Assembly: GCF_022846255.1 (NCBI RefSeq) | Contig: NZ_AP025682.1 | Length of the DNA stretch: 64,000 bases | Strand: one strand, 5' to 3' | Origin: Escherichia coli | Lineage (GTDB): Bacteria; Pseudomonadota; Gammaproteobacteria; Enterobacterales; Enterobacteriaceae | Shown here: positions 4,619 to 64,000 of the stretch, piece by piece | Position numbering within the stretch: the stretch's first letter is position 1 | Layout of the letters: the number at the start of each line of letters is the position of its first letter | The notes under the pieces: generated by a model | What the model was told of the DNA's origin: nothing | The model's input: only the letters and a program-made list of their open reading frames with translations | Database searches by the model: none | Program-made: the position numbers and the translations under genes

Positions 4619-4747
4619 ATGCGCTCCAGGCATGATACGGCAGACTATATTTGTTATACCACTTTTGCGAGTTTAGCTCTACTCACAGTGATGAAAAAGC
4701 CGCCTGAGAAGGCGGCTTTGAAGGGAAACTAAAACTTACACGAAGCC

Positions 4748-55258: not shown

Positions 55259-55400
55259 ACAAGGGTAAGGGAGGATTTCTCCCCCCTCTGATGAGTTGTT
55301 AGTAAGTCGGGAAACTTAACAGTAACAACACAACCAGTATGATGACGAACTTCATCATAACCCTTTCCTTCTATAAGGCCCCTTCCTCGGGAGGGGCTTT
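55259..55400 (+). ncRNA. Sib-family antisense sRNA (type I antitoxin; SibD/SibE-like), ends approximate
   Basis: Transcript from the promoter above would cover the whole ibs ORF on the opposite strand and end at a GC-rich hairpin (CCCCTTCC-TC-GGGAGGGG, about 55380..55397) followed by CTTTCCCGTTT; about 140 nt, the size I recall for Sib RNAs. Confidence 0.55.
55299..55358 (-). CDS. Ibs-family type I toxin, 19-aa hydrophobic peptide MMKFVIILVVLLLLSFPTY
   Basis: ATGATGAAGTTCGTCATCATACTGGTTGTGTTGTTACTGTTAAGTTTCCCGACTTACTAA on the reverse strand with RBS GGAAAGGG 5 nt upstream; matches the Ibs consensus (MMK.VIIL..LLL.SF..Y). Below the ORF-track size cut-off. Confidence 0.8.
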   Translation of the reverse strand: MMKFVIILVVLLLLSFPTY

Positions 55401-55597
55401 CCCGTTTCAGCCCCTTGCTGACTCCCCGATTGTTGATGAGCGCCGGACTCCGCGCAACGCTTTCCCAGAGGCAGTTTTGCCTTCCCCGAGCAGTCACGCA
55501 AAACGCTGCAACAGCCTGATCATTTGCACCTTTTTGCGGAACGCAGATATAAAAAATCCCCGGCTTTTTGGGCCAGGGATTATTCATAGAAGAGGGT

Positions 55598-57259
55598 TTA
55601 CTCTGTTTTTTCTTCGACGGGAGTTGTTGAGGTTAAGGGGGAAGTCAATGCCGCCAGTGAGCCGCCTGAAACGCCAATTTCATTGAGCAAGGAGTCAATC
55701 AGCGGTGCCTGTGTGCGGTAAGAAAGGGCGGCAGACAATGCCTGTTCTGCCAGGTTTCCGCCACTAACGCTGCCTGATGCCGCATCCCCCGCAGCACCAC
55801 CTCGGTTTAATCCATCGACCTGAATAATCTTGATGCCGTCGATAGACTTCATCGGCTCAACGGATTTCTCTATTACTGCAGGTAACGACTGTAATAGCGC
55901 CAGTTTGAATTTAAGGCTGGTTTGTTCATCAGAAAGTACGTTGATAGCGTCGTTCAGCGCACGTTGCGCTTCTGCTTCCGCCAGACCCTTTTTACGCGTA
56001 GCTTCGGCTAACTCAACGATTGCCGCCGCCTGCATCTCTGCGGCTTCTTTCTCTGCTTTCGCCCGCACGGTCAATTCAACCGCTTTGGTTTCTGCATCCT
56101 GCGCGGCAGCGATTAGGGCAACTTGTTTAGCACGATCGGCTTCTGCGGTCTGGCGAGTTGTTTCTACGTTTTGCTGGGCGCTTACCGCTTCTGCAAGTGC
56201 AAGGTTGGCACGCGCTTCCGCTTGTGACTGCTGTTCCGATTTGGCGGCAATAGCGATCGATTTCGTCTGGTTGGCGATTTCGGTGACCTGCTGCTGTTCG
56301 ATCTCTTTAATGCGAACTTCACGTTCAGCTTCAACTTTTCTGGAACGGACGGCCTGTTCGCGGTCGATTTCCGTTTCCTGAATCTGTCGTTCAGCCAGAA
56401 TTCGCGTCTGCTCTGCTTCCCGACGACGCTCGGCCTCAAAAGCTGCAATTTTCGCATTCTGCTCAGCGGTACGGGTTTTAACCTGCTGCTCCTGTTCAAG
56501 CGTCATAAACGCTTCTTGTTGTTCAATCTCCAGCTTCCGCGAAAGCGCATCACGGTTTTTCTCACGCACCGCAACTTCTACATCCTGTTCAACTTCGTTA
56601 CGTTCGCGACGACGGCGCTCCGTCTCCTGCGTCAGCTTGGTCAAACCTTCGGCGTCAAAGGCGTTGTTAGGATTGAAATGTTCTTTCGACGTCTGGTTAA
56701 AGTTGGTAAGTGAAACGCTTTCCAGTTCCAGGCCGTTTTTTGACAGATCCTCAGCTACGGTATTTTGTACCCCCTGCACGAAGTTCTCGCGGGTATCCTG
56801 TAACTCATGCATGGTCATTTGTGCCGCTGTTGCACGGAGGGCATCGACAAATTTATCTTCAACCAACATACGTAAGTCTTCAGGCGACAGGGTGCGTTGC
56901 CCCAGCGTCTGGGCGGCGGTGGCAATACCTTCCACTGACGGTTTTACCCGTACAAAGAAAGCGACAACGACATCGACGCGCATACGATCTTTCGTAATCA
57001 GGCTATCAATGGTTGAGCGGCTGACTTCCAGCTTCAGAGTATTCATATTGATGGGGATTATTTCATGAAAGATCGGCATCACGATTGCGCCACCGCTCAT
57101 TACCACTTTTTGCCCACCTAAACCAGTACGAACAAAAGCTTGCTCTGCCGAAGCGCGACGATAGAGCCTGGCGAAAATAATTCCAATAATAAACAGAATG
57201 CATACGGCAATAATCGCGGTAAACATCCAGGAGGGCACAGAATTAACAATATCATCCAT
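55598..57259 (-). CDS. yqiK: Flotillin-like SPFH/band-7 membrane protein YqiK
   Basis: 553-aa ORF MDDIVNSVPSWMFTAIIAVCILFIIGIIFARLYRRASAEQAFVRTGLGGQKVV...; N-terminal TM, SPFH domain, long Ala/Glu-rich coiled coil. Confidence 0.9.
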   Translation of the reverse strand: MDDIVNSVPSWMFTAIIAVCILFIIGIIFARLYRRASAEQAFVRTGLGGQKVVMSGGAIVMPIFHEIIPINMNTLKLEVSRSTIDSLITKDRMRVDVVVAFFVRVKPSVEGIATAAQTLGQRTLSPEDLRMLVEDKFVDALRATAAQMTMHELQDTRENFVQGVQNTVAEDLSKNGLELESVSLTNFNQTSKEHFNPNNAFDAEGLTKLTQETERRRRERNEVEQDVEVAVREKNRDALSRKLEIEQQEAFMTLEQEQQVKTRTAEQNAKIAAFEAERRREAEQTRILAERQIQETEIDREQAVRSRKVEAEREVRIKEIEQQQVTEIANQTKSIAIAAKSEQQSQAEARANLALAEAVSAQQNVETTRQTAEADRAKQVALIAAAQDAETKAVELTVRAKAEKEAAEMQAAAIVELAEATRKKGLAEAEAQRALNDAINVLSDEQTSLKFKLALLQSLPAVIEKSVEPMKSIDGIKIIQVDGLNRGGAAGDAASGSVSGGNLAEQALSAALSYRTQAPLIDSLLNEIGVSGGSLAALTSPLTSTTPVEEKTE

Positions 57260-57285
57260 TATTAAATTTCCTTTTGATTAATAAA

Positions 57286-57915
57286 TTACAATATTTGGGG
57301 CCAGGGATTGTTTTCCGCCAAATATCGCGTTGCAGAAAGTCGGCAAATAATTAACACTTTGTCTCCTTTAGTGAAAATTTTTCCTTCTTCAGGCTCCAGT
57401 AGTAAATAATGTATTTGGCCAAATTGATCGGTGAGTTTTCCTTCGCAGGGATTACCTGAAGTGGCTTGATGACCGGTAATTAACGCCATGCTACCAATAT
57501 ATTCTTCTTCTGTAATAGCTGAGCTGTGATCGCGTGGAATCCAGGGCGCAACTATTTTACCGGTATAATGCACCGCAATAATCGTAAACAGTAAACTGAC
57601 AGGAACCACAAACAGGTTCGAGAGTGGTGATTGCCAGACCATGATGCAGGTATGCTGCAACAGGATGCCAATAAGACCAAAAAAAACAGCCAGTAAGCAG
57701 AGAACGACGAGAGCTGGCAATCTTCCGATATTGAGATAATGAAGTGCCTGGCTAATATGACCTGTGGTTATGGAATCATAATGGTCAAGATGTGCATCAA
57801 GAGCACCGGAGAGCATGTGACCGCAGATAAGCGCAAAAATTTCTAAAAGGCCGATCAACAGTACAAAGGAAATAGCGAAAAGATAAGGGGTGTTATAGTC
57901 GGCGAATAAAATCAT
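57286..57915 (-). CDS. yqiJ: NfeD-like inner membrane protein YqiJ (partner of YqiK)
   Basis: 209-aa [37 protein letters not shown]...; multi-TM N-terminus plus C-terminal OB-fold-like region; 26 nt upstream of yqiK. Confidence 0.85.
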
Positions 57916-58183
57916 ATGTCACTCCGATGTCCATTTAGTGACGCAATATTTACTTTAGGGTAGTTTCCTTGCTTACATTTATCTTTGTTAATAATAACAC
58001 ATGTTAGAGAAGTTCTGGAAGAGAAAGTCTTTTAATATGGTTTTTTATTTTTCACTAAAAAGTGTGATCGGGGACAATATATTTACGCACGTTATGTTTA
58101 AAGGCACTACACTGATTGGGGAATACTGAAATCAGAAAAAGCATATGGCCTTAAAAGGTATGCGATAACCGGAGGATGTGCTT

Positions 58184-58384
58184 ATGGATCATAGTCTTAA
58201 TTCTTTAAATAATTTCGATTTCCTGGCGCGTAGTTTTGCCAGAATGCACGCAGAAGGTCGCCCGGTCGATATTCTGGCCGTTACTGGTAACATGGATGAA
58301 GAACATAGAACCTGGTTTTGCGCACGTTATGCCTGGTATTGCCAACAGATGATGCAAACCAGAGAACTTGAATTAGAACACTGA
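58184..58384 (+). CDS. glgS: Surface composition regulator GlgS
   Basis: Track ORF starts at GTG 58178; real start ATG 58184 ([45 protein letters not shown]...), 66 aa, GGAGGA RBS. Confidence 0.9.
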
Positions 58385-58388
58385 TATT

Positions 58389-58410
58389 ACGGGCCGTCTG
58401 GCCCGTTTTT
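58389..58410 (+). terminator. Rho-independent terminator of glgS
   Basis: ACGGGCCGTCTGGCCCGT hairpin followed by TTTTT, 5 nt after the glgS stop and 8 nt before the convergent ubiK stop. Confidence 0.6.
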
Positions 58411-58418
58411 GTGATGCT

Positions 58419-58718
58419 TTATTCTGCTTTATCAATAGGCGGGATAGCCGGAGGAGATTGAAGATCTGCTACCGAATTATTGCGCGCTTCCAGTTCACTG
58501 ATGCGCTGCTCCAGTAACGCCAGTTTTTCACGAGTCCGTAACAGGACTTGCGTCTGAACGTCGAATTCTTCGCGGCTTACCAGATCGAGACGCGTCAGCT
58601 GCGCTTGTAGGGTTTGGCGGATTTTTTTCTCCACATCTTCCCCGAACTCCCTGATTCCTTTAGGCATTGATTCGTGAACCTGGCGAGCGATTTGCTCAAT
58701 TTTTTTCGGGTCAATCAT
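58419..58718 (-). CDS. ubiK: Ubiquinone biosynthesis accessory factor UbiK (YqiC, BMFP family)
   Basis: ORF 58419..58778; recognised start [41 protein letters not shown] at ATG 58718; coiled-coil protein of about 99 aa. Confidence 0.88.
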
Positions 58719-58839: not shown

Positions 58840-59085
58840 GCTTATTCTCAGGGCGGGGCGAAATTCCCCACCGGCGGTAAATCAACTCAGTTGAAAGCCC
58901 GCGAGCGCTTTGGGTATGAACTCAAAGGACAGCAGATCCGGTGTAATTCCGGGGCCGACGGTTAGAGTCCGGATGGGAGAGAGTAACGATTCTGTCGGGC
59001 ATGGACCCGCTCACGTTATTTTGGCTATATGCCGCCACTCCTAAGACTGCCCTGATTCTGGTAACCATAATTTTAGTGAGGTTTT
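58840..59085 (+). promoter_or_regulatory. FMN riboswitch (RFN element) in ribB leader
   Basis: Conserved RFN blocks visible: GGGCGGGGCGAAATTCCCCACCGGCGGTAAA ... CCGACGGTTAGAGTCCGGATGGGAGAGAGTAACG, followed by an expression platform reaching the ribB SD (GAGG at about 59078). Confidence 0.8.
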
Positions 59086-59745: not shown

Positions 59746-59778
59746 AAACCGCTGCTTAATTTACTGCCTTAATCAAGA

Positions 59779-59812
59779 AACCGAAGTTGTAGCAGGCTTC
59801 GGTTTTTATTTT
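59779..59812 (+). terminator. Rho-independent terminator of ribB
   Basis: AAACCGAAG-TTGTAGCAGG-CTTCGGTTTTTATTTT: stem plus U-tract 33 nt after ribB stop. Confidence 0.6.
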
Positions 59813-60006
59813 TCCCTGCTATGCAAGATGTTAATTCCGCTTCTCTTTCTATGAGAAAATTTCATTAATATCAGGCATTCTTTTTCATTATGATCAAAAT
59901 CATATAATTGTTCCGTTATTATGCGACCATATGAATATATCCGAAAAAGGATATGTGAAATTTATGCGCTAAATGTTTAGTATTGTTAAATATTAAGGGT
60001 AAAAGG

Positions 60007-60177
60007 ATGTTTATCGCCTGGTACTGGATTGTATTGATTGCTCTTGTTGTTGTGGGTTATTTCCTGCATTTGAAACGTTATTGTCGGGCGTTTCGCCAGG
60101 ACAGAGACGCACTGCTTGAAGCGCGGAACAAATACTTAAACAGTACGAGAGAAGAGACAGCCGAAAAGGTAGAATAA
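60007..60177 (+). CDS. Small single-TM membrane protein (56 aa), uncharacterised
   Basis: ATG 60007 with AAAGGA RBS; MFIAWYWIVLIALVVVGYFLHLKRYCRAFRQDRDALLEARNKYLNSTREETAEKVE, one N-terminal TM helix then a charged tail. Track lists a longer TTG-initiated version from 59983. May correspond to a K-12 small protein between ribB and zupT, but I cannot confirm the name. Confidence 0.5.
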   Translation: MFIAWYWIVLIALVVVGYFLHLKRYCRAFRQDRDALLEARNKYLNSTREETAEKVE

Positions 60178-60234
60178 GGCTTTAGTGAAGCTGGCAGAAG
60201 TTGTCCATGCGCTGGACAACTTCTGATGTTGCTT

Positions 60235-61008
60235 TTAACCAATTCCCGCCGTTTGTAGCAGCACTAAACTGAATCCCATCACTGACATTCCACATAGTAC
60301 GCCATAGCTGGGGTTATTATTGGGGTCAATCTCTTTGGCGAGCGGCATTAATTCGTCAACGGAGAGCGCCACCATAATTCCTGCAACCGCCGCCATGATT
60401 GCCGCCATGACCACCGGAGAAATCATGCTACCGAGGATTAACCATGCCAGCACACCACCAAGAATTTCTGCCAGCCCGGAAATGCCCGCCCACAGAATCG
60501 CGGTACGTTTCGATCCTGTTGCAGCGTAAACCGGGCCTGCAACCGCCAGACCTTCAGGAATATTGTGCAACGCTACGGCCAGGGCGATGCCAAATCCCAG
60601 CTCCAGGTTGCTGCTCGCCGTGACAAAGGTGGCAATCCCTTCCGGGAAGTTATGCAGACTGATGCCGAGAGTGAGCAGAATGGCTGTGCGCTTGATCGAT
60701 TTTGGCAACGGCTGCACCGATTTTTGCATTAAATCCTGCGGATGCGCATGTGGCAACATGCGGTCCAGGCCAAAATAGCCAAGCAGACCGAAGATAAACA
60801 TTCCATAACCCAACACAGGTGACATTCCTTCGGCGGCTAATGCGGCAGGAAGCATTTCCATTAATGAGATGAGCAACATGATCCCCGCCGCAAATCCTAG
60901 CGAAAACGCCAGTAAGCGGTTCGAGGGTTTTTGCCCGAGAACGCCGAGAAACGCGCCAATAAACGTGGCTGCCCCCGCCAGTATGGTCAGAATGAGAGGT
61001 ACTGACAT
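60235..61008 (-). CDS. zupT: Zinc transporter ZupT (ZIP family)
   Basis: ORF 60235..61050; start ATG 61008 ([29 protein letters not shown]...) with AAGGAG RBS; 257 aa. Confidence 0.93.
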
Positions 61009-61150
61009 CGACAACTCCTTATAAATCTTCACCTTCAGGCAGATCGTCAAAATAACTGATGATCATCATCATTGTTATCCGGGTTCTTACTCCGCCGAAC
61101 AAGCGTATTGTGAGGATATCAAAATGACACCTTTAGTTAAGGATATCATC

Positions 61151-61939
61151 ATGTCTTCAACACGTATGCCAGCATTGTTTTTAGGTCACGGTAGTCCGAT
61201 GAACGTGCTGGAAGATAATTTGTATACCCGCAGCTGGCAGACGTTGGGGATGACATTGCCACGCCCGCAAGCAATAGTGGTGGTTTCGGCTCACTGGTTT
61301 ACCCGTGGAACAGGAGTGACCGCGATGGAGACGCCGCCCACGATTCATGACTTTGGTGGCTTCCCGCAGGCGCTGTACGATACGCATTATCCTGCTCCGG
61401 GTTCACCTGCGCTGGCACAGCATCTGGTTGAGCTGTTAGCGCCGGTCCCTGTGACGCTGGATAAAGAAGCCTGGGGCTTCGACCACGGCTCGTGGGGCGT
61501 ACTGATTAAGATGTATCCTGACGCCGATATCCCGATGGTGCAGTTGAGTATCGACAGTAGCAAACCTGCCGCCTGGCATTTCGAAATGGGGCGCAAACTC
61601 GCGGCGCTGCGTGATGAAGGGATAATGTTGGTCGCCAGTGGCAACGTGGTGCATAACCTGCGTACAGTGAAGTGGCACGGTGATAGTTCACCGTATCCGT
61701 GGGCGACGTCGTTTAATGAGTATGTGAAAGCGAATCTGACGTGGCAAGGGCCGGTGGAACAACATCCTCTGGTGAATTATCTCGACCATGAAGGTGGCGC
61801 GTTATCGAACCCAACGCCAGAGCACTATCTGCCGTTGTTGTATGTCTTAGGTGCGTGGGATGGGCAGGAGCCAATTACCATTCCGGTCGATGGTATAGAA
61901 ATGGGCAGTTTAAGTATGCTGTCGGTGCAGATAGGTTAA
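61151..61939 (+). CDS. ygiD: Extradiol ring-cleavage dioxygenase family protein YgiD (4,5-DOPA dioxygenase-like)
   Basis: ORF 61124..61939; two plausible starts, ATG 61124 (271 aa) and ATG 61151 (MSSTRMPALFLGHGSPMNVLEDN..., 262 aa), each with an RBS. The shorter is reported; either is possible. Confidence 0.85.
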   Translation: MSSTRMPALFLGHGSPMNVLEDNLYTRSWQTLGMTLPRPQAIVVVSAHWFTRGTGVTAMETPPTIHDFGGFPQALYDTHYPAPGSPALAQHLVELLAPVPVTLDKEAWGFDHGSWGVLIKMYPDADIPMVQLSIDSSKPAAWHFEMGRKLAALRDEGIMLVASGNVVHNLRTVKWHGDSSPYPWATSFNEYVKANLTWQGPVEQHPLVNYLDHEGGALSNPTPEHYLPLLYVLGAWDGQEPITIPVDGIEMGSLSMLSVQIG

Positions 61940-61984
61940 TAAAAGAACCCGAAGCCAGAATGACTGGCTTCGGGTGTTGCTGAG

Positions 61985-62656
61985 TTAGCCTCTGATGATT
62001 TTAAGTGCCCATGCGCCACTCATAATGACCAGCAGCACCAGACACATACCAAAAGCCAGCATACAAGCCTGAGCCATATTCATAAAATGCCATGGTGGTA
62101 GCAGATACCAGCCTTCAGATTGCTGATACATTTCCACAAACCACTGTTGCGTGCTGCTCAGTGTGACGCCATCAGGAACGATTGGTGCGTCATAGCCACA
62201 ATCCCCGGTAGGCTTGAACCAATTTGGTGCCCACTGTGCCAGCGGCAGGTTAAAGGGAAAAGTTGGATCGGTAGAGCAACCCTGTACGCCAAACAGTGAA
62301 TCGGGATCCGGATTATGTACTGCATGGTGGATATCGTTCAGTTTGAGCGAAAACTTCAGTCCCAAAATGCTGCCGTAAAATGCCATCACGCAGCCAATTA
62401 GCTTTAGGATGATGTTCTTTGGGTTGATCGCTGCAACCAATCCTCCAATAACCATCACAAACATGGCGTAGCGAATGTATACACATTGCTCACAGGGTGC
62501 CATGTAGAGATAGATCTGGAAGAAAGAGTGCGCCAGGATAATTAACGCGCCCATCGCAACGGCCATTAACAACCACAACAAGCGTTGCTCCTGCCATCTG
62601 ACCAGTGTGTCAACTGGTGATGTGCGAAGATCTTTCCACATTCCCTTAATACCCAT
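61985..62656 (-). CDS. dsbI: DsbB-family membrane thiol oxidase DsbI
   Basis: 223-aa ORF with 4 TM segments and a periplasmic Cys pair in PCEQCVY, DsbB-like topology; last gene of the assT-dsbL-dsbI operon. Not in K-12 at this position by recall. Confidence 0.88.
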
Positions 62657-62670
62657 AGCCTGTTTCCCTG

Positions 62671-63339
62671 TTATTTGCTTGCTAACTCACGGATAAGGTC
62701 TGCCATCGCGTCGATGGATTTGATGCTCTTGGTGTAGATCAAGTACTTACCATTAACGACATAGGCTGGAACCCCCTGGATTTTGGCGACATCATAAGAG
62801 GCTTTCCATTTTTCCAGTGTTTCTTGAACCGCTGGTTCTTTCAGTGCCGCTTCAAAATCCGCCTGACTCATACCTGCGGCATCCAGACCGGTTTTGATAA
62901 AAGCAGCCGGATCTTTACCGTCAGACCAGCGTTCTTTTTTGTCGTGATAAGCCACGTAGTAGGCAAACTTGGCTTTCTTAAACTGAGAGTTAGCATCAAA
63001 TAAGGAAATGCCTGCTGCTTTATCTTTATTGATCAAGACCGCAAAGACTTCGCTTGCTTGTTTGCCGTATTCACCTTTGGTTTCCAGATGGAACGGCGTG
63101 AAAGCAACGATATCTTTCACTTTTTCCGATACCGGACCGGTAACCGCTTTGTCGTACTTGTAACAGAACGGGCAGGCGTAGCTGAATACCTTAATCAGCG
63201 TTTTGTCTGCATTCGGAATAGGTTTTTCCAGAACCATGTAATCCGTGCCTTCGGTAAATGCAGAAGCGGTAAATGAAACAGCCAAAGCTGCGGTAAGCAG
63301 TATGCTTTTAAATAGTGATGAGATCCCTAATTTCGACAT
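62671..63339 (-). CDS. dsbL: Periplasmic thioredoxin-fold oxidoreductase DsbL (DsbA paralogue)
   Basis: 222-aa ORF with signal peptide [27 protein letters not shown] and CPFC active-site motif ([11 protein letters not shown]); 14 nt upstream of dsbI. Confidence 0.88.
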
Positions 63340-63356
63340 TTTTATTCCCTTCTTAA

Positions 63357-64000
63357 TTATTTGAACATCTGTTGTGGACGGACTAACAATGCACGATAGT
63401 GAGTCTGATTGGGTTTATCTGACAGCACGTCGATTTCCACTTTCACTTCTTTGGTTTTGTAATCGATTTCGTTCAACTTACCGACGGTTGGCTGCCCGAC
63501 ATCGAACAAATGAATAGAACCACCGAAGCCAAACATGGTGTTACGGTCGGCTTGATATTCAATGATGGAGGTGATTGGGCTATAGAAATCGTAGCCACGT
63601 TCTTTACCGTATTCCCACACTTGCTGAACGGTGCCTTTCTTCTCATCAATCTTATATTCCACAAAGCGGGAATATTTCATGGTTGGTAAGGCAGGTTGTT
63701 CCAGATGACGACCATCGCCATTATCAAAAATGGTGAGCGTTCCTTTGCTGGAAATCCAGGCGGTATGCTGGGTGTAGGTAAAGTCGAAGTCTGAGTTTTC
63801 GCACAGGCCATTTTCGTTACAGGTAATTGGCTTACCGTTAGCATCAACCGGTTTCAGCAGCTTGCTGGCCAGAGGTTTTTCCCAACCTTTAGAGGGCGCA
63901 AGGATCCATTTCACTTGCTTATCACGACCAATCTTCACAACACCCTGGTGGCGAGAGGAGAGGATGATAGAGTCATCTTTTGCGTCATAGGCGATAGAGT
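63357..64000 (-). CDS. assT: Arylsulfate sulfotransferase AssT, C-terminal part only; gene continues beyond window end
   Basis: Reverse-strand frame is open from the window end (...YDAKDDSIILSSRHQGVVKIGRDKQVKWILAPSKGWEKPL...) to the stop at 63357; the 193-aa track entry is only the part after an internal GTG. Beta-propeller sulfotransferase by recalled similarity. Confidence 0.88.
   Translation of the reverse strand, partial: SIAYDAKDDSIILSSRHQGVVKIGRDKQVKWILAPSKGWEKPLASKLLKPVDANGKPITCNENGLCENSDFDFTYTQHTAWISSKGTLTIFDNGDGRHLEQPALPTMKYSRFVEYKIDEKKGTVQQVWEYGKERGYDFYSPITSIIEYQADRNTMFGFGGSIHLFDVGQPTVGKLNEIDYKTKEVKVEIDVLSDKPNQTHYRALLVRPQQMFK

Follow-up and report, generated by a model that had tools for sequence, protein, structure and literature searches.

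The assT-dsbL-dsbI operon of Escherichia coli CFT073 was reportedly studied by Grimshaw et al. in 2008, by Malojcic et al. in 2008 and 2014, and by Totsika et al. in 2009. Biochemical and structural work on the operon dates back to 2008; it serves as a reporter in screens for DsbA inhibitors and is routinely named by annotation pipelines. It is tricistronic, and AssT is a substrate of DsbL/DsbI (PMC7810732, PMC13426309, PMC6067686); the CFT073 DsbI, which is identical to the protein described here, is reported to re-oxidise DsbL with quinones (Grimshaw 2008, as cited in PMC6067686, PMC13426309 and PMC7810732). The cluster of Salmonella Typhi is repressed by H-NS and activated by LeuO (PMC4264507), and the chromosomal copy of CFT073 (astA) is not expressed under laboratory conditions (PMC7810732).

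The right edge of the window (the whole stretch of E. coli DNA analysed here, 64,000 nucleotides) carries, with a probability of about 95%, this known chromosomal operon of strains such as CFT073, and of Salmonella. The initial annotation had recognised a truncated arylsulfate sulfotransferase gene followed by genes for a DsbA-like protein with a CPFC motif and a DsbB-like membrane partner; the gene identities, their order, the minus strand, the spacing of 17 and 14 nt and the CPFC motif are all correct by sequence, profile searches and PDB matches. Its statement that DsbL and DsbI form an accessory redox pair for AssT in uropathogenic E. coli and Salmonella agrees with the literature (PMC6067686, PMC7810732, PMC13426309).

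Gene content and layout of the operon

The features at the right edge of the window are as follows.

61124/61151-61939, plus strand: ygiD (4,5-DOPA extradiol dioxygenase; NF007914, 533 bits), core flank outside the cassette
61937..61975 (hairpin 61975-61947), minus strand: intrinsic terminator of the operon, with a 12-bp stem containing 8 G-C pairs, a 5-nt loop and the tail TCTTTTATTA
61943..64000, minus strand: part of a non-K-12 cassette of ~3.7 kb that lies within the window, between the core genes ygiD and ygiC
61985-62656, minus strand: dsbI, 223 aa (ORF list and raw sequence)
62657-62670, minus strand: dsbL-dsbI spacer, 14 nt with a ribosome-binding site, reading TAA CAGGGAAACAGGCT ATG in the mRNA
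62671-63339, minus strand: dsbL, 222 aa (ORF list and raw sequence)
63340-63356, minus strand: assT-dsbL spacer, 17 nt with a ribosome-binding site, reading TAA TTAAGAAGGGAATAAAA ATG in the mRNA
63357-64000, minus strand: 3' part of assT (stop codon 63357-63359), the gene continuing past the end of the window

Both spacers were read from the sequence and contain Shine-Dalgarno-like motifs (GAAGGG in the 17-nt gap and AGGGAA in the 14-nt gap). The layout is that of a tricistronic operon, with three co-oriented genes separated by short gaps, no internal terminator and one terminator at the end. This terminator begins 9 nt past the dsbI stop codon, its tail overlaps the stop codon of ygiD, which is convergent with dsbI and forms the left boundary of the cassette, and an equivalent hairpin was found in other Escherichia species. 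In the terminator scan it is the sole strong hairpin within 61000-64000, the remaining terminator-like matches being weak stems of 5-8 bp within coding sequence (6 against 3.0±1.8 expected). Promoter matches between 61 and 64 kb were no more numerous than in shuffled sequence, and an Rfam scan of 56-64 kb returned nothing but the FMN riboswitch upstream of ribB. Plus-strand ORFs inside assT, dsbL and dsbI, all of at most 72 aa, were regarded as spurious. The GC content of the cassette part within the window is 46.3%, compared with 52.2% elsewhere in the window; for the cassette as a whole the values are 45.6% against ~52% in the flanks, and in a 99.6%-identical relative the AT-rich region upstream of assT (477 bp) has a GC content of 28%.

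The matches of the dsbI, dsbL, assT and ygiD products lie far beyond chance. DsbL matches the crystal structure PDB 3C7M at 194 of 195 residues, with the Salmonella DsbL structure 3L9U as the second-best PDB match, and shares 220 of its 222 residues with CFT073 DsbL, the two substitutions being S12T, in the signal peptide, and V129A. The signal peptide, as read from the sequence, comprises 27 residues (…FTASA|FTEG, with the Ala-X-Ala site at 27), and the 3C7M chain begins at residue 28, the mature start. The active site CPFC is formed by Cys56 and Cys59, and the GVP cis-Pro loop motif lies in the C-terminal half. Against the housekeeping DsbA equivalogs DsbL scores 77 bits (cutoff 279), that is, it falls below the equivalog cutoffs although DsbA family models match, as expected of a paralogue. 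The dsbL product is thus a predicted periplasmic DsbA-like dithiol oxidase.

DsbI, which is 100% identical to its CFT073 counterpart, scores 417.7 bits against the NCBIfam equivalog NF003304 (cutoff 212; residues 3-222 on profile positions 2-217 of 221) and only 82.9 bits against the DsbB model (cutoff 157). It has a DsbB-type architecture, with four hydrophobic segments (about 23-51, 57-84, 81-104 and 191-223; topology from hydropathy only), a CEQC motif (Cys55/Cys58) in the first periplasmic loop and the pair Cys127/Cys153 in the long second loop (105-190). These features identify the dsbI product as a putative DsbB-like, quinone-linked oxidoreductase of the inner membrane.

An NCBIfam scan of the AssT fragment returned no family, and Pfam and PDB then gave an unambiguous identity: the fragment covers positions 179-374 of the 374-position PF05935 model (E=1.6e-75), and residues 359-571 of PDB 3ELQ (mature numbering), the C-terminus of the beta-propeller, match it at 100% identity. 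The C-terminal 213 aa are likewise 100% identical to CFT073 AssT. Residues R16, C60, C66, H78 and T143 of the fragment, all present, correspond to mature Arg374, Cys418, Cys424, His436 and Thr501, among which His436 is catalytic, Arg374 and Thr501 bind the sulfuryl group and Cys418-Cys424 form the disulfide (PMC13426309). The signal peptide, the beta-sandwich domain and His252, His356 and Asn358 are encoded beyond base 64000. The visible 213-214 codons are open up to base 64000, and the four E. coli relatives inspected have a complete assT (598 aa); the truncation seen here is probably due to the window edge alone and not biological. Run-off ORFs are absent from the ORF list, where assT is shown only by an internal GTG start.

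Proposed pathway and its specificity

The mechanism outlined here is based on established work on the CFT073 proteins, which match those encoded in the window fully or almost fully. The three genes would be expressed as a single transcript starting in the AT-rich region upstream of assT and ending at the 61975-61947 hairpin. AssT would be exported to the periplasm by its signal peptide, where DsbL, with its thioredoxin fold and CPFC motif, would introduce the single disulfide of AssT, Cys418-Cys424. Reduced DsbL would be re-oxidised by DsbI through its CEQC and Cys127/Cys153 pairs, and the electrons would pass from DsbI to the respiratory quinones. Folded AssT would then use phenolic sulfate esters, and not PAPS, as donors of the sulfuryl groups that it transfers to phenolic acceptors, in a ping-pong cycle with a sulfo-His436 intermediate. 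We infer the enzymology, the co-transcription and the H-NS/LeuO control, the last of which was shown in S. Typhi, from the literature.

The initial annotation had described DsbL/DsbI as a folding pair dedicated to AssT. That the pair serves AssT holds; "dedicated" is too strong since DsbA/DsbB fold AssT too (PMC7810732), and together with the laboratory silence of the CFT073 copy this qualifies both "dedicated" and "active" as descriptions of the system. The folding of AssT by DsbA/DsbB would fit an alternative in which DsbL/DsbI constitute a general back-up folding system, a second DsbA/DsbB, whose linkage to assT is incidental. We consider this alternative improbable: specificity for AssT has been reported (Grimshaw 2008, as cited in PMC6067686, PMC13426309 and PMC7810732), and in Enterobacterales, Sutterellaceae and Campylobacterota alike the DsbL-DsbI-AssT triad has kept its linkage despite changes in gene order, which argues for functional coupling.

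Distribution in E. coli and evolutionary origin

The cassette is a presence/absence feature of the species, found in 1508 of 5426 complete E. coli genomes (a 28% / 72% split); in each of the 1508 matches the query is covered to 80% or more. An empty K-12-type junction is found in 3917 genomes, so that the two states together account for 5425 of the 5426, and the zupT-ygiD stretch (window positions 60235-61984) matches the same number, 5425 of 5426. Within E. coli the cassette is a scar-free two-state polymorphism (1508 versus 3917 genomes). Its nucleotide identity to the best-matching complete genomes is 99.0-99.6%, never 100%. The absence of the three genes from K-12, claimed in the initial annotation, was borne out: in MG1655, ygiC and ygiD are 37 bp apart, homology to the window ends at 61942 and the spacer is a hairpin with no gene inside. 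In CFT073, by comparison, the same cassette occupies the same site, and DsbI and the AssT C-terminus are identical. CFT073, ST131 and ATCC 25922, all of phylogroup B2, carry the cassette, and K-12, of phylogroup A, does not; a literature search on the phylogroup distribution of the cassette found nothing specific.

The suggestion that the right edge opens an accessory segment continuing outside the window proved right in part. In the relatives inspected, a further ~1.6 kb follows, namely ~1.15 kb of assT and the 477-bp AT-rich region, but then comes core ygiC-ygiB-tolC and not a larger island; the accessory segment thus appears to span only about 3.7 kb. A larger pathogenicity island was ruled out, as core ygiC-ygiB-tolC lies directly next in every relative examined. 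The annotations of four genomes show neither an integrase nor an IS or tRNA between ygiD and ygiC, junction scars and direct repeats are absent, and the 37-bp spacer of K-12 resembles the cassette ends only by chance 7-10-mer matches. The hallmarks of a mobile genomic island (integrase/transposase, tRNA or att site, direct repeats) are accordingly missing.

A different concern is that in the source strain the cassette is decaying or silent, with a break in assT beyond the window edge or an operon that is never expressed. The 5' 1.15 kb of assT and the promoter lie outside the window, the CFT073 chromosomal astA is silent in the laboratory (PMC7810732), one E. coli genome has an IS150 within dsbL, and remnants occur in other genera. 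Such decay or silence nevertheless seems highly improbable, given that the 214 visible codons are open with a product 100% identical to the crystallised enzyme, that neither dsbL nor dsbI is damaged and the DsbI sequence is exactly that of CFT073, and that, besides the query coverage of at least 80% in all 1508 E. coli matches, the genes are annotated full-length in the records inspected.

Beyond E. coli, the cassette lies in the ygiC|ygiD slot in Escherichia sp. MOD1-EC7003, in E. whittamii, in an "E. coli" of ~91% identity that is probably another species, and in Pseudocitrobacter. Salmonella arizonae, seven Citrobacter genomes (with an intact cassette) and Intestinirhabdus carry it in the zupT|ribB slot, which in Salmonella and Citrobacter is two genes away from the E. 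coli slot; decayed remnants are found in S. diarizonae and Citrobacter On2M. The two slots lie on either side of the ygiD-zupT pair and the orientation is always the same. Linkage of the triad extends, with another gene order, to Edwardsiella, Budviciaceae, Sutterellaceae and Campylobacterota. In most comparisons the divergence of the cassette follows that of its flanks, the between-species identity (84-99%) being of the same order as for the flanking core genes. Two observations run counter to a loss scenario, namely the GC content of the cassette, which is below that of the flanks, and the greater divergence of dsbL and assT in MOD1-EC7003 (84-86% nucleotide identity against 92-96% for the flanks).

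Given the same site in other Escherichia and a nearby slot in Salmonella and Citrobacter, the cassette seems to have resided in the tolC-ribB neighbourhood of Enterobacteriaceae for a long time and to have been lost in K-12-type lineages, rather than to be a recent island. Since the K-12 spacer and the cassette ends have no sequence in common, the junctions give no direction of the event. Under the opposite polarity, the cassette would be a horizontally acquired islet inserted between ancestrally adjacent ygiC and ygiD in part of E. coli, K-12 would be ancestral and nothing would have been lost. The low GC content (45.6% against ~52%) and an upstream region of 28% GC, typical of H-NS-silenced foreign DNA, fit acquisition, as do the restriction of the cassette to 28% of E. 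coli genomes and the adjacency of ygiC and ygiD in Salmonella, Citrobacter and Intestinirhabdus, where a hairpin/REP-like spacer loosely resembles that of K-12. Acquisition is nonetheless rather unlikely in our estimate: at least three other Escherichia lineages and Pseudocitrobacter use the same insertion site, the cassette and the flanking core genes diverge to the same order between species, the borders lack mobility genes, direct repeats and tRNA, and loss does occur, as the remnants in S. diarizonae and Citrobacter On2M attest.

A further scheme can be put forward tentatively, as a possibility we do not favour strongly: an ancient local transposition, either of a 1.8-kb core block or of the cassette, followed by full-to-empty allelic replacement through homologous recombination, as opposed to classical island gain. 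If true, this would make the locus a natural example of small cassettes being shuffled and purged without mobile-element machinery.

The operon is already known; it is real but ordinary, and nothing found here alters the existing picture. Its main use is as a strain marker, as the initial annotation had proposed: the cassette identifies the source as an E. coli other than K-12, whose cassette proteins equal, or differ only slightly from, those of the uropathogen CFT073. The quantitative additions are modest, comprising only the 28% / 72% split, the 3.7-kb size without a mobility signature and the different slot in related genera.

Comparison with known systems

The closest match is the CFT073 operon, which has the same site (ygiC|assT dsbL dsbI|ygiD), order, strand and spacers; it differs in its surroundings, where CFT073 has a fimbrial operon between yqiD and ribB that is absent from this window. 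In Salmonella enterica (Typhimurium / Typhi) the cluster consists of these three genes as well, arranged and oriented alike with respect to tolC and ribB, and the S. arizonae cassette proteins are 85-88% identical to those encoded here. However, the Salmonella cluster occupies the zupT-ribB slot instead of the ygiC-ygiD slot, and H-NS/LeuO regulation has been shown only for Salmonella.

With DsbA/DsbB of K-12, the pair shares the combination of a periplasmic thioredoxin-fold CXXC oxidase and a four-helix membrane re-oxidant with two Cys pairs. DsbL has CPFC where K-12 DsbA has CPHC, the second periplasmic loop of DsbI is ~45 residues longer than that of DsbB, and dsbL and dsbI are adjacent and linked to a substrate gene, whereas dsbA and dsbB are not. 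The dsbA2-dsbB-astA loci of the Campylobacter type similarly link genes for a DsbA-like protein, a DsbB-like protein and an aryl sulfotransferase; in Campylobacteraceae and Helicobacter, DsbI is 55-62% identical and AssT ~40% identical to the proteins encoded here. These loci differ from the E. coli operon in the gene order, dsbL-dsbI-assT as opposed to assT-dsbL-dsbI, and in the much greater divergence of the sulfotransferase.

Organization of the operon and its products

Three genes follow ygiD on the reverse strand at the right edge of the window, with the spacing described in the initial annotation, namely 17 nt between assT and dsbL and 14 nt between dsbL and dsbI.

Features at the right edge of the window (ORF list, raw sequence and terminator scan)
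61124/61151-61939, + strand: ygiD, convergent with the cassette genes
61975-61947, - strand: intrinsic terminator
61985-62656, - strand: dsbI, 223-aa ORF
62671-63339, - strand: dsbL, 222-aa ORF
stop codon at 63357-63359, - strand: 3' part of assT, open for 214 codons to the window edge

Both gaps contain a purine-rich ribosome-binding motif, the mRNA junctions being TAA-CAGGGAAACAGGCT-ATG and TAA-TTAAGAAGGGAATAAAA-ATG. The only strong terminator in 61000-64000 starts 9 nt past the dsbI stop codon; its 12-bp stem contains 8 G-C pairs and runs into TCTTTTATTA. The remaining terminator-like matches in this interval are short stems inside coding sequence and show no enrichment over shuffled sequences. 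Promoter-like matches around the cassette are no commoner than in shuffled sequence, and the cassette promoter must lie outside the window, upstream of assT; in a relative with a 99.6%-identical cassette, this upstream region spans 477 bp and has a GC content of 28%. The three genes have been described as a tricistronic operon, the chromosomal copy of which is silent in the uropathogenic strain CFT073 under laboratory conditions (PMC7810732), and the S. Typhi cluster is under repression by H-NS, with LeuO as an activator (PMC4264507).

The identities initially proposed for the three products are borne out by profile and structure comparisons. The DsbB-like membrane protein scores 417.7 bits against the NCBIfam equivalog model of DsbI (cutoff 212) and well under the cutoff of the DsbB model; its hydropathy profile shows four hydrophobic segments, with CEQC (Cys55/58) after the first, and Cys127/Cys153 within a long loop (residues 105-190). 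The DsbA-like CPFC protein is DsbL, sharing 194 of 195 residues with the crystal structure of CFT073 DsbL (3C7M), the chain of which begins at residue 28, directly past the Ala-Ser-Ala signal-peptidase site; its matches to the NCBIfam models of housekeeping DsbA are far under their cutoffs. The truncated arylsulfate sulfotransferase covers positions 179-374 of the 374 in Pfam Arylsulfotrans (PF05935; E=1.6e-75) and shows 100% identity to the CFT073 structures 3ELQ, 3ETS and 3ETT over their residues 359-571. The visible fragment includes Arg374, Cys418, Cys424, His436 and Thr501, among which His436 is the transiently sulfated catalytic residue and Arg374 and Thr501 belong to the sulfuryl-coordinating residues (PMC13426309, a 2026 review).

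The ygiC-ygiD site and its surroundings in E. coli

In K-12 MG1655, ygiC (end 3181581) and ygiD (end 3181619) are separated solely by a 37-bp hairpin spacer, and K-12 homology to the window spans ygiD and ends at base 61942; the cassette is thus missing from K-12, as initially stated and as reported for the DsbL/DsbI pair in K-12-type strains (PMC6067686). Among 5426 complete RefSeq genomes of E. coli searched with the 2061-bp cassette region, 1508 contain it (all at coverage of at least 80%) and 3917 possess the K-12-type contiguous junction. Together they make 5425, exactly as many genomes as possess the locus at all, so the site exists in two clearly separate states; this exact total also makes a K-12 cassette copy elsewhere in the genome unlikely. 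Among the matches, one copy of the region resides in a plasmid record, two genomes carry it at two places each, and in strain ST2747 dsbL is interrupted by IS150.

As initially suggested, the accessory segment does continue past the right edge, but it is small, comprises three genes and stops shortly beyond that edge. In the relatives FDAARGOS_497, CFE299 and 28Eco12 and in CFT073, the gene order is ygiD / dsbI dsbL assT / ygiC ygiB tolC, the entire extra segment being ~3.7 kb; beyond the window, only ~1.15 kb of assT plus an upstream region of ~0.48 kb would precede the core genes. No integrase, transposase or tRNA gene was found at the segment in these four genomes, and no similarity was detected between the K-12 spacer and the cassette ends.

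The cassette proteins resemble those of CFT073; the source strain is clearly non-K-12 and probably belongs to a B2-like or related lineage. Among the 5426 genomes, the best match to the last 25 kb of the window does not exceed 98.7%. Divergence is concentrated in yqiK-yqiJ-glgS (55400-58300), which differs by 5-7% from the genomes matching best elsewhere and is closest to strain 536, at only 98.4%; the source genome appears to be mosaic and to come from a lineage that has been sparsely sampled.

The tolC-glgS stretch contains several alternative accessory slots. At 57900-58500 (ubiK/glgS), the window lacks the ygiL-yqiGHI fimbrial operon and IS2 found in K-12 between ubiK and glgS, K-12 homology starting only at 58488, within the ubiK 3' end. 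The fimbrial operon of CFT073 between yqiD and ribB is likewise missing; the ribB-zupT gap occupies 59746-60234, and an ordinary, expected FMN riboswitch (58840-58988; 120.9 bits) lies upstream of ribB. The exuR/exuT intergenic region (4630-4697) lacks the 5.4-kb CS1-type chaperone-usher fimbrial cluster of CFE299. In the region 16457-17143, the antitoxin gene higA (138 aa) is intact at 16727-17143, and higB, which encodes the toxin, seems to be truncated or missing, since only 270 bp separate higA from rlmG; the CFE299 annotation shows the same beside higA.

Distribution in other genera: gain or loss

A DsbI search of species-representative genomes yielded 42 loci, the neighboring genes of which were mapped by tblastn. 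The cassette occupies the ygiC/ygiD slot in Escherichia sp. MOD1-EC7003, E. whittamii, an 'E. coli' record with ~91% core identity and two Pseudocitrobacter genomes, and the zupT/ribB slot in Salmonella enterica subsp. arizonae, seven intact-cassette Citrobacter genomes and Intestinirhabdus. In the latter slot the orientation is the same as in Escherichia, but the cassette lies on the opposite side of the ygiD-zupT pair. It is also present in E. albertii, on a locus too short for the flanks to be seen.

Loci from the DsbI search assigned to each slot
ygiC/ygiD slot (Escherichia, Pseudocitrobacter): L004, L005, L007, L008, L010
zupT/ribB slot (Salmonella, Citrobacter, Intestinirhabdus): L009, L011, L013, L014, L016, L025, L042

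L004 (NZ_JAATUR010000001.1, labeled E. coli SCPM-O-B-8794), with core genes 90-95% identical to the window at the nucleotide level, probably represents an Escherichia other than E. coli (cryptic clade) under an E. coli label.

Remnants are found as well: S. diarizonae (L045) retains only a C-terminal piece of DsbI, beside ribB, and Citrobacter sp. On2M (L044) retains partial assT and dsbI. Between the window and the other Escherichia loci, the cassette genes have diverged at the nucleotide level to a degree comparable with ribB, zupT and ygiD, with mosaic exceptions in dsbL of 28Eco12 and in dsbL and assT of MOD1-EC7003. On balance, we infer that the cassette is an old resident of this neighborhood that was lost repeatedly, including in K-12-type E. 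coli lineages, although its lower GC content (45.6% versus ~52% in the flanks) and its junctions, which are uninformative on direction, weigh against this reading.

Farther afield, linkage of the DsbL-DsbI-AssT triad persists in Edwardsiella, Budvicia, Leminorella, Limnobaculum, Sutterellaceae, Helicobacter and Campylobacteraceae, often with the genes arranged as dsbL-dsbI-assT; this persistence supports functional coupling of the oxidase pair to the sulfotransferase.

Relation to the AssT system of CFT073

By analogy with CFT073, AssT would be exported to the periplasm, where DsbL would form the Cys418-Cys424 disulfide; DsbL would then be re-oxidized by DsbI, with electrons passing on to quinones, and AssT would transfer sulfuryl groups from one phenolic compound to another through sulfo-His436. 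The single disulfide of AssT is essential (PMC13426309). AssT can also be folded by DsbA/DsbB (PMC7810732), and therefore DsbL/DsbI, initially called a dedicated pair, do show a preference for AssT but are better described as accessory than as strictly required. The physiological donors and biological role of AssT are still unclear (PMC12809581), and AssT was reportedly dispensable for colonization of the mouse bladder (PMC7810732).

Altogether, the analysis bears out the initial observation and supports its interpretation, correcting it on two points, the extent of the segment and the status of the oxidase pair. The assT-dsbL-dsbI system is already known in detail, and the mechanism outlined here is transferred from the work on CFT073, from which the window differs in DsbL at two positions, S12T in the signal peptide and V129A, with no difference in DsbI or the AssT C-terminus.
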